From the IMG/VR virus record IMGVR_UViG_3300036406_001149: a stretch of 64,000 nucleotides of DNA; one strand, 5' to 3'. The notes under the pieces are model-generated. The model saw only the letters and a list, made by a program, of their open reading frames with translations, made no database searches and was not told the origin of the DNA. Below, one piece after another: positions 54,620 to 57,252 of this stretch. Numbering within the stretch: the stretch's first letter is position 1; the number at the start of each line of letters is the position of its first letter. The position numbers were made by a program, and so were the translations under genes. Origin of the DNA: a virus.

Positions 54620-54632
54620 TAGTAGCCTTGAG

Positions 54633-54662
54633 AAAAAAGACACGGGGGCAGTTACGCCCCCG
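54633..54662 (-). terminator. Rho-independent terminator after hsp20
   Basis: CGGGGGC-GTAACT-GCCCCCG followed by TGTCTTTTTT. Confidence 0.8.
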
Positions 54663-54685
54663 CTCTCGTTTAGATACAAAAAAGA

Positions 54686-55180
54686 TCAACCTTCTGTAAT
54701 TTTCAACTTTTTAGTTTTAGTATTAGTTTCTGAAGTAGATTTAATCAAATCAAAACTTAGTGTCAAAATACCATCTTTCAAGTTCGCTAATGGTTCTTTT
54801 TCACTCAAGTCTGAAGGTAATCGTATAACTCTCCTAAATTCTTGACTGCTCAATTCTTTAATCTGATATTGTTCGTTTTTTGCCAAATAATCCTCATGCA
54901 AAAATCCACCAACAGTCAACAATCTTCCTTCACCATCCTCAGACAATTCTACTATTAGATCATCCAACTTAACTCCTGGCACAGTATATTGCAAGATTAA
55001 TTTATTTTCTGTGCGTATAGCGTCCATCAACGGATAACCTCTCCCCTTTTTACTCAATCCAGTAAAAAAGTCATGACCAAAAATATTATTCATAGCTTGG
55101 TCTAACTCTTTACTAACCTCAGAAAATAGATCAACTCTGCGAGGGGCTAAATAGCCGTTTCTAGAAATAGAAAGATTCAT
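54686..55180 (-). CDS. hsp20: Small heat-shock protein (Hsp20/alpha-crystallin)
   Basis: YPLMD, YTVPGV, FRRVIRLP, ANLKDGILTL; GGAGG RBS. Confidence 0.88.
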   Translation of the reverse strand: MNLSISRNGYLAPRRVDLFSEVSKELDQAMNNIFGHDFFTGLSKKGRGYPLMDAIRTENKLILQYTVPGVKLDDLIVELSEDGEGRLLTVGGFLHEDYLAKNEQYQIKELSSQEFRRVIRLPSDLSEKEPLANLKDGILTLSFDLIKSTSETNTKTKKLKITEG

Positions 55181-55267
55181 AATAAACCTCCATTACAAAC
55201 TATAGTCATAGTTTAATAGTAAAAATTAGTCCATAAATGGCACTAATCGTTAATCAACACGATTAAC
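55181..55267 (-). promoter_or_regulatory. Three-hairpin 5' UTR, candidate RNA thermometer
   Basis: GTTAATC/GATTAAC; TTAGT-G-CCA/TGG-ACTAA; third hairpin pairs a U-rich tract with the GGAGG RBS. Confidence 0.5.
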
Positions 55268-55273
55268 ACCATA

Positions 55274-55302
55274 ATAATATTATGTCTGCTATATTATGTC
55301 AA
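55274..55302 (-). promoter_or_regulatory. Sigma70-type promoter TTGACA-17-TATTAT for hsp20
   Basis: Direct match. Confidence 0.65.
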
Positions 55303-55614: not shown

Positions 55615-56550
55615 TTAAAACACTGGATTAATAATTCCATAACCCTGATATTTTCTTATTCCTTTATACTTAGGATTGTTTAAAGATATAGCGTGTAGTT
55701 TGAACACTTCTATATAATCTTCAAATGTTTTTAGTCTATATTTTTTATTTTTATTATTATAGCTTAATAGCAACGAAGCACAACCAACAACAAAAGGATT
55801 ACTCATGCTCGTTCCACTCATACTAGCGTATTTATTTCCTGGAACACATCCAATAATATTATGTCCAGGAGCTAAAAAGTCTAAATCGTCTCCACTACAA
55901 GTAAATGAGGTTCTATTCATGTTTTCGTCTATTGCTCCTATAGATATGGTATTTTTATACCTAGCAGGATACATTATTTCAGAATCTTCACCACTATTAC
56001 CGGCCGCACAAAAAACGATACATCCTTTACTATTAGCATAAGTTATGGCCTCTTCTATAAGCTTTGAGGGGGCTGGCGAACCAAGACTCATGGTAATAAA
56101 ATCCACAGATTGATTTGCGGCCCAGTGTATTCCGTCTGCTACAGCAGTCATTGATCCTGTTCCATTGTCTCCGAGAGATTTAACCGGAACAATCTTAGTC
56201 ATAGGAGCTACTCCAACCATTCCAAATCCATTGTCTGACGCTGCTATTGTTGATGATACATGCGTTCCATGACCAGCACCATCTACAGGGTCTTTATTTT
56301 GATCAATAAAATTTTTACCGGGTAATAGATTATCTACTAGGTCTTTGTGGTTCAGGTCACAGCCCGTATCTATTACAGCAACTACTACTCCTTCTCCTTT
56401 AGATTCCTTCCATAAATTGGGAATATTAAATTTTCTAAGTTCCCATCCTTGAGATTGTGGATCATCTACAGATAATCCGTATACATCCTCTCTTACATAT
56501 GGTAATAGTGATATATTATTTTTCTTTTTAAAAAAACCTTTAGCCATCAT
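55615..56550 (-). CDS. Subtilisin-like (S8) serine protease
   Basis: VAVIDTG (Asp), HGTHV (His), AAGN (oxyanion Asn), SGTSMSNP (Ser). Confidence 0.92.
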   Translation of the reverse strand: MMAKGFFKKKNNISLLPYVREDVYGLSVDDPQSQGWELRKFNIPNLWKESKGEGVVVAVIDTGCDLNHKDLVDNLLPGKNFIDQNKDPVDGAGHGTHVSSTIAASDNGFGMVGVAPMTKIVPVKSLGDNGTGSMTAVADGIHWAANQSVDFITMSLGSPAPSKLIEEAITYANSKGCIVFCAAGNSGEDSEIMYPARYKNTISIGAIDENMNRTSFTCSGDDLDFLAPGHNIIGCVPGNKYASMSGTSMSNPFVVGCASLLLSYNNKNKKYRLKTFEDYIEVFKLHAISLNNPKYKGIRKYQGYGIINPVF

Positions 56551-56552
56551 GA

Positions 56553-56810
56553 CTACTCCTTAAAAATCTCAAAATTTACAGTAAACAGCTTACCATCTGT
56601 ATTTCGATAAAATAATTCTGGCCCATCTTTCTTTGCCCACCAAATAAATGTATTCTTAATTTTGTTATTTATGTTCGGATTCCAACTAGCTGACCAAACA
56701 TCTGGCCCCATATCATCATGTGTTGATCGTGCAAATATGATCTTATATGGACTGCTAGTTCCATTATAAATCTGTATAGTTCCATCAAATCCAACTTCAA
56801 TGGGTTTCAT
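56553..56810 (-). CDS. Hypothetical protein
   Basis: ORF track. Confidence 0.5.
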   Translation of the reverse strand: MKPIEVGFDGTIQIYNGTSSPYKIIFARSTHDDMGPDVWSASWNPNINNKIKNTFIWWAKKDGPELFYRNTDGKLFTVNFEIFKE

Positions 56811-57252
56811 TATATTCTTCCTGAGTCATATAAGACCCATCTTTTTTTCTGGAAGTAAATTGGCCCATTCCCATACATTTTTCACAAGCTGCCATATCTA
56901 TTTTCGGCCCAGCAGCACCATATTCTTGAAGCAAAATCTTGTATTTGTTCTGAACAATGTCGCAATAATCGTAACCATCACCATAGGGTAGTCTAACACA
57001 CTTTTCACACTTGTCAACCATAAGATGATGATTTATGAATAATGCCAAACTAGCATCCATCATAAGCTTATTAACATCTGTTGGATATTCTCCAGAGCCT
57101 TTACATTGATTACAAGTTATCAGCGGTGGCTCTGATAGTTTTTGTACTTTCTTTTTATGGATAGGATTAAGAACAAAAATAGAGAATAATAGCCCTATAA
57201 CTGTTCCTAATACTATTATTGTTGGTTTAATATCAAAATTAGTTTCGTTCAT
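56797..57252 (-). CDS. TM-anchored protein with DnaJ-type zinc-finger repeats
   Basis: TM residues about 11-30; CNQCKGSG and CEKCMGMG (CxxCxGxG). Confidence 0.6.
   Translation of the reverse strand: MNETNFDIKPTIIVLGTVIGLLFSIFVLNPIHKKKVQKLSEPPLITCNQCKGSGEYPTDVNKLMMDASLALFINHHLMVDKCEKCVRLPYGDGYDYCDIVQNKYKILLQEYGAAGPKIDMAACEKCMGMGQFTSRKKDGSYMTQEEYNETH

Follow-up and report, generated by a model that had tools for sequence, protein, structure and literature searches.

Genes for small heat-shock proteins are widespread in phages. In 5'UTR stabilizers of the ompA type, the mRNA carries a hairpin at its 5' terminus. RNA thermometers have been described from phages as well: the earliest phage case is the set of alternative structures of the lambda cIII mRNA (PMC4166951), and blyA of the SPbeta prophage has a published fourU element (PMC10586365), so that a preliminary description of the locus considered here, which was aware of no phage example, was out of date on this point. 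In Escherichia coli, the small heat-shock protein IbpA represses its own translation by binding to the structured 5'UTR of its mRNA, which is the sole documented precedent of this kind for a small heat-shock gene (PMC10474464). The locus that we compare with these systems is the hsp20 gene of a lake phage, together with the leader of that gene. It lies in a stretch of 64,000 nucleotides, hereafter the window, which is part of a 126-kb IMG/VR virus record with an estimated completeness of 91%.

The hsp20 gene is encoded on the minus strand (54686–55180) and specifies a protein of 164 aa that matches the HSP20 family (Pfam: PF00011, E = 1.7e-10) and carries an L-K-I motif at its C-terminus. Its AUG, at 55180, follows a GGAGG Shine–Dalgarno (SD) sequence (55187–55191, minus strand); a longer protein with an N-terminal extension was considered and rejected, since a UAA located 12 nt before the start codon closes the frame in the window. 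A promoter scan identified a −35 hexamer, TTGACA (55297–55302, minus strand), and a −10 hexamer, TATTAT (55274–55279, minus strand), separated by a spacer of 17. This arrangement (55302–55274) is of the sigma-70 type, as the preliminary description had read it, with 11 of 12 consensus positions matched, and the −35 hexamer is kept as TTGACA or TTGACT across 19 A+T-rich relatives. A sigma-32 promoter within the leader was also considered and rejected on the grounds of unfit spacing. The predicted +1, at about 55267, defines the 5' end of an 87-nt leader (55267–55181, minus strand). The window contains 31 sigma-70-like promoters scoring 10–12 of 12, of which 25 are on the minus strand and many have the form TTGACA-16/17-TAnnnT, and the phage seems to depend heavily on the sigma-70 RNA polymerase of its host. 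On the 3' side of hsp20, a terminator scan identified a G+C-rich hairpin with a U run that resembles an intrinsic terminator (54632–54663, minus strand; hairpin 54663–54642). Because this hairpin comes after hsp20, the promoter, leader, gene, and terminator-like hairpin form a self-contained cassette, that is, an autonomous one-gene unit. Upstream of hsp20 (within 55615–57252, minus strand) lies a gene for a 311-aa subtilase of the S8 family (Pfam E = 2.4e-52), and also upstream is a gene for a 151-aa protein with two CxxCxGxG motifs, for which matches to the DnaJ zinc finger were sub-threshold only; together with Hsp20, these proteins look like a small proteostasis cluster.

The preliminary description proposed that the 87 nt from the predicted +1 fold into three consecutive hairpins, and this fold stands: its minimum free energy is −22.5 kcal/mol (z = −2.65), a value reached by 1 of 200 shuffled sequences, and the hairpins are conserved and covary among related phages. 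The first, HP1 (55249–55267, minus strand; supported by folding and covariation), is a 5'-terminal hairpin composed of GUUAAUC and GAUUAAC around a 5-nt loop. Its sequence and length vary freely among relatives, with all six consensus pairs changed on both sides, and it begins 4–7 nt past the conserved −10 hexamer, the start site being a predicted one. HP1 has been lost in L016, where its 5' arm is deleted, and is absent in L041. The relative L016 is the closest of all, with 98% amino-acid identity in Hsp20; the loss of the HP1 5' arm (L016:1411–1440), which leaves HP2 and HP3 intact, is apparently the result of a deletion between two GTGTT repeats.

The second hairpin, HP2 (55225–55247, minus strand; supported by folding, RNAalifold, and covariation), is the most conserved and is found in all family members. 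In the window, it consists of a lower stem, AUUAG/CUAAU, the pair U55242-A55230, a bulged G55241, an upper stem, CCA/UGG, and the loop UUUA. The core that is shared by the family comprises a Y·G pair, the bulged G, and two C-G pairs. The first of these elements is a U·G wobble in 23 of 29 leaders and a U-A pair solely in this window, the C-G pair at alignment columns 65–96 is present in 29/29, and the bulged G occurs in every row that is legibly aligned. The lower stem and loop are variable, with compensation, and 8 of the 10 HP2 pairs have changed on both sides. The HP2 of the window (55225–55247) has the shortest upper stem and is the weakest of the 29, at −5.6 kcal/mol. HP2 is followed by an A/U-rich single-stranded linker, UUUUACU (55218–55224, minus strand), which had been proposed as an anti-SD; its sequence is not conserved, and in G+C-rich members it is A/U-rich but not U-rich.

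The third hairpin, HP3 (55192–55217, core 55214–55197, minus strand; supported by RNAalifold, covariation, and folding), reaches further than the preliminary description had seen. Beneath the core (AACUAU/AUAGUU with the loop GACU) there is a (U)G bulge, which is UG in the window (55197–55196), and a base helix, here AUUA/UAAU, that abuts the SD. Most relatives have GUUA/UAAC in the base helix, so that the window differs from them by a change on both sides; this helix stays AU-rich even where the other stems are G+C-rich. The upper part of HP3 is missing in five divergent members, and the spacer between HP3 and the SD ranges from 0 to 5 nt across the family. Relatives do not conserve either of two possible upstream reading frames, AUG-GAC-UAA within HP2 and a 10-codon frame whose start is in the loop of HP3, and inspection by eye for loop–loop kissing interactions found no conserved complementarity.

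Scans of IMG/VR and JGI metagenomes recovered Hsp20 loci with 53–98% amino-acid identity, nearly all of which carry the same promoter and three-hairpin leader, and metagenome protein sets contained 299 Hsp20 relatives. Within this Hsp20 clade, about 30 uncultured phages, apparently from freshwater samples, thus have the conserved leader, while its G+C content ranges from 27% in the window to 57–59% in the G+C-rich relatives. DNA and protein searches of GenBank phages returned no close Hsp20 relative at E ≤ 1e-5, and a scan of bacterial and archaeal genomes with an Hsp20 profile returned none; therefore, there is no host gene or host copy of the leader for comparison. We aligned 29 distinct leaders through two rounds of covariance modeling (R1 and R2). 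In this alignment, 97.1% of the cells form standard pairs (75.2% in shuffled controls and at most 48% in slid controls), 21 of 25 pairs have changed on both sides (14.4 in shuffles, with 0 of 500 reaching 21, and at most 8 in slid controls), and the covariation score is 0.589 (at most 0.105 in slid controls); the alignment was fitted to the structure of the model, so the pair counts are somewhat inflated. Two results that agree with these counts are the structure-blind fold calculated by RNAalifold from a plain MAFFT alignment of 16 leaders, which recovers HP2 and the extended HP3 with the SD unpaired, and a match (E = 5e-7) to the L064 leader, which lay outside model building, directly upstream of its hsp20 gene.

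The motif is present once per record, and always at hsp20, in five phage records of 126, 151, 197, 223, and 224 kb, the 151-kb record being only 28% complete. We rejected the idea that the leader is a repeated early-gene module, as it occurs in single copy per genome; a pattern match in L012 lies inside a coding region and is attributable to chance. No family in Rfam 15 matches the leader. The invariants, namely the bulged G, the C-G pair, and GUUA/UAAC, are kept while the remaining stems drift from A+T-rich to G+C-rich. We conclude that the leader is a real, selected, hsp20-specific RNA structure. Given that HP2 stability spans −5.6 to −18.7 kcal/mol, what the family conserves is shape rather than marginal stability; the corresponding range for HP3 is 0 to −11.9 kcal/mol.

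The relatives also differ in what surrounds hsp20. Directly 3' of the gene, the G+C-rich relatives L033 and L035 carry a DUF3800-VIII RNA (Rfam: RF03075), at L033:993–1058 with 46.3 bits (gathering score 40.2) and at L035:967–1020 with 38.3 bits; there is no RF03075 match after hsp20 in the window. In L021, hsp20 and its leader are flanked by two tRNA genes on one side and, on the other, by a full-length tmRNA of 106.9 bits (L021:42–197, L021:1116–1469), which looks like a phage-borne tmRNA adjoining a chaperone gene. In L030 (1471 onward), an intact leader precedes an hsp20 frame that closes after 44 codons, for which a frameshift, a pseudogene, or an error of assembly could account.

The inverted repeats sit between the promoter and the start codon, and HP2 is similar to the ends of CIRCE in its outer bases (TTAG...GCTAA); the repeats could in principle act in DNA, as operators for a CIRCE/HrcA-like repressor that overlap the transcription start. 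We assign this reading a negligible likelihood. The half-sites are asymmetric, and the stems covary instead of being kept in sequence. The U·G wobble of HP2 (23/29) would be a C-A mismatch in RNA of the opposite strand, and the fold is therefore specific to the sense strand of hsp20; U·G pairs and a bulge are sensible only in RNA of that strand. In agreement with the preliminary description, no CIRCE (TTAGCACTC-N9-GAGTGCTAA) was found with three or fewer mismatches in 64 kb (0 matches). A CIRCE-like DNA operator is excluded by this negative pattern search together with the strand-specific pairing. Based on the sigma-70-type promoter and the absence of CIRCE, from which the preliminary description had suggested translational control, post-transcriptional control is plausible.

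We also considered whether HP2 and the U run that follows it form an intrinsic terminator, acting either as an attenuator before hsp20 or as the end of a small RNA of ~50 nt composed of HP1 and HP2. The window has UUUUU after HP2, and most A+T-rich relatives have three to five U there; however, HP2 was not called in the terminator scan, the stem in the window is weak at −5.6 kcal/mol, and the U run is missing from the G+C-rich members and from L020, L028, L029, and L040, all of which keep HP2. Because so many HP2-keeping members are devoid of the U run, an attenuator or small RNA that ends there is unlikely, and we give it very little weight.

A further alternative is that the leader is purely an element of mRNA stabilization or processing, in which the 5' hairpins would block 5'-end-dependent RNases in the manner of ompA with no gene-specific regulation. 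HP1 is located at the predicted +1 in all members with a recognizable promoter, and the sequence of a hairpin, an A/U-rich single strand, and a hairpin adjoining the SD is in favor of such a function. Nonetheless, we regard this explanation as improbable: it leaves the invariant bulged G, the U·G wobble, and GUUA/UAAC unexplained, and HP1, which should be its most important element, is the one that is lost in L016 and L041. In addition, 5' hairpins are missing at the other promoters of the phage. HP1 is the strongest promoter-proximal hairpin (−8.6 kcal/mol) among the 31 sigma-70-like promoters of the window, and as a set these 31 promoters do not exceed random segments in structure (p = 0.48), which argues against promoter-proximal hairpins as a general feature of this phage.

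The preliminary description interpreted the leader as an RNA thermometer with the layout of ROSE and fourU elements, in which the last hairpin is extended so that the U-tract covers the ribosome-binding site (RBS). When the window is folded without coding sequence, HP3 is extended by AUUA/UAAU and by the pairs C55219-G55190 and U55218·G55191, and this extension does cover the first two G of GGAGG; the remaining A, G, and G are ~75% unpaired, and the extension is not conserved in relatives, so the proposed occlusion of the RBS by the last hairpin was correct for these two bases only. The comparison with hsp20 leaders of related phages that had been suggested as a check went against the thermometer reading: the hairpins are conserved in 29 leaders, and pairing between linker and SD occurs at the level of chance. 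Across the 29 leaders, 40.7% of the linker:SD cells are paired, which equals the shuffled control and falls within the 35–48% of slid controls, and no pair has changed on both sides. With 75 nt of coding sequence included, the SD:linker pairing probability in the window is 0.00–0.01. The leader of the window matched none of the ROSE, ROSE_2, ROSE_3, and FourU models even at E ≤ 10 in a search of 131 bases; 12 relatives were negative with the ROSE models at E ≤ 1, and ROSE_3 run over the whole phage gave a lone match of 11.4 bits, which is noise and located elsewhere. No U(U/C)GCU motif pairs with GGAGG in the 3'-proximal hairpin, and the SD is unpaired in the consensus. Where a fourU element has four U paired with AGGA, only C55219 and U55218 pair here, with the first two G, and the U-tract is missing from G+C-rich members. 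Because the SD lies outside all conserved pairs, the leader is not a zipper of the ROSE or fourU type on the RBS, and the reading of the hsp20 leader as a thermometer of either class is not supported.

A thermometer of another architecture is the main rival to the explanation that we favor, and we consider it doubtful. It would have the base of HP3, the extension onto GG, and a hairpin formed by the SD and AUG with codons 2–5 hinder the 30S subunit when cold and melt when warm. Small heat-shock genes are the commonest targets of thermometers, so the prior favors temperature sensing (PMC4166951). The folding of the window is in part compatible with this model. When 15–33 nt of coding sequence are included, codons 2–5 take up the SD bases that HP3 leaves free, and with 15 nt no base of the SD is more than 12% unpaired at 37 °C; weak AU/GU helices, the HP3 extension and a 7-bp hairpin with codons 2–3, then pair the entire SD of the window. 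The latter is a weak, window-specific hairpin (AGGUUUA:UGAAUCU; 55173–55189, minus strand) that comprises the start codon and codons 2–3 and thereby holds the AUG. Furthermore, the base of HP3 is AU-rich (GUUA/UAAC) even in G+C-rich relatives, and the core of HP2 (Y·G, bulged G, C-G) shares its local geometry with the anti-SD:SD core of ROSE, judging from the "perfect pairing" mutant ΔG39/U38C (PMC3669281).

Set against this, the SD is in no conserved pair. With coding sequence included, it pairs mostly with the early codons, and the share of the leader in this pairing has a median of 0.02 in the family; the partners in the AGGUUUA/UGAAUCU hairpin vary among relatives, and this hairpin shows no enrichment relative to synonymous variants. 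Opening the SD at 37 °C costs 3.7 kcal/mol, an ordinary value for this phage: the median for 40 SD-bearing genes of the window is 2.1, and 8 of the 39 others have a higher cost. Among 28 family members, the opening cost of the native sequences is 2.96 kcal/mol versus 2.74 kcal/mol for variants with synonymous codons (Wilcoxon p = 0.47); since the native cost does not differ from that of the variants, there is no sign of selection for RBS occlusion. SD accessibility and pairing are predicted to be nearly insensitive to temperature from 15 to 45 °C. In addition, hairpin stability varies more than three-fold in the family, the HP3–SD spacer varies from 0 to 5 nt, and the ROSE and FourU models are without a match. 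We rejected two further structures that involve the SD: pairing with the Ala-Pro-Arg codons (CCUC) has a median probability of 0.04, and a UAAC-GGAG-GUUA mini-hairpin with the SD in its loop, which can be drawn in many relatives but not in all, is too weak to matter.

The explanation that we favor, with a probability of roughly 0.45 and with its functional part reasoned from conservation and precedent, is that the leader is an undescribed, hsp20-specific, cis-acting RNA motif that serves as a post-transcriptional operator for a trans-acting factor and in which HP1 is 5'-protective. In the order of its elements, the unit comprises a sigma-70 promoter, HP1, HP2, the A/U-rich linker, HP3, and the SD, and the leader would act after transcription. 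HP2, and perhaps the base of HP3, may constitute a structure-specific operator to which the factor binds. A recognition element for a trans-acting factor is suggested because the motif is single-copy and gene-specific, has a bulge and a wobble as invariants, and is indifferent to helix stability. By the precedent of E. coli IbpA, the candidate factor is the phage Hsp20 itself. Counting against direct carry-over of the IbpA mechanism, a BLASTP comparison with E. coli IbpA aligns Arg93 of its alpha-crystallin domain, a residue required for binding of the 5'UTR, with Gln113 of the phage protein, and this glutamine is nearly invariant in the clade; Tyr34 and Arg97 of IbpA have equivalents in Y49 and R117. 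HP1, for its part, may protect the mRNA terminus against 5'-end-dependent decay. Its position at the predicted 5' end fits such a protective role, and its loss in L016 and L041 counts against 5' protection being essential everywhere. We propose more tentatively, as a possibility, that the leader defines a new class in which a bulged-G hairpin resembling the ROSE core has become uncoupled from the SD and works either as a feedback operator for Hsp20 or a host factor or as a thermosensor that acts on a ribosome standby region in place of the SD itself.

That a precise fold has been kept despite Hsp20 identity as low as about 54% and leader G+C content between 27% and 59% points to strong selection other than for RBS masking. 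Should the leader prove to be a protein operator, autoregulation of a chaperone by RNA binding would extend from enterobacterial IbpA to phages; should it prove to be a temperature sensor, its mechanism would fall outside the current thermometer classes. In either case, the leader is a compact, well-defined orphan RNA motif that is ready for mutational analysis and a candidate entry for RNA family databases.

Compared with the described systems, the leader shares individual features with each. The ROSE elements (Rfam: RF00435, RF01832, RF02523; Krajewski et al. 2013, PMC3669281) are likewise found in the 5'UTR of small heat-shock genes and have two to four hairpins, of which the phage leader has three, all covarying; the Y·G wobble, bulged G, and C-G pair of HP2 reproduce the local geometry of the ROSE core. 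However, in ROSE the motif U(U/C)GCU and the SD are paired with each other within the 3'-proximal hairpin, whereas the bulged G is here located in the middle hairpin, whose 3' strand (UGGG) does not constitute the SD of the gene, and the SD is located outside the conserved pairs. ROSE genes also usually have sigma-32 promoters, unlike the sigma-70-type promoter of this hsp20 gene. The fourU elements (Salmonella agsA, Rfam: RF01795; blyA of the SPbeta prophage, PMC10586365) resemble the leader of the window and of most A+T-rich relatives in having a U run upstream of the SD, and a small heat-shock protein is encoded downstream; in the phage family, by contrast, this run is unpaired with AGGA in the consensus and is absent in G+C-rich members, and the fourU model has no match. 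Lambda cIII provides a phage mRNA in which leader structure is proposed to set translation, but it does so through two mutually exclusive folds over the start region, and we found no conserved alternative fold and no Rfam match for the hsp20 leader. The ompA leader is similar in having a 5'-end hairpin, an A/U-rich single strand, and a second hairpin adjoining the SD; the phage leader differs by its additional sequence invariants, its specificity to one gene, and the loss of the 5' hairpin in some members. The likeness to ibpA (Miwa and Taguchi; Cheng et al. 2023, PMC10474464) consists of a small heat-shock gene with a conserved structured leader, for which the mechanism of autoregulation requires the shape of the RNA and not masking of the SD by the leader alone. 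The two systems differ in that the ibpA leader is itself a thermometer of the ROSE type, which the phage leader is not, and in that the position of Arg93 is occupied by Gln113 in the phage protein.
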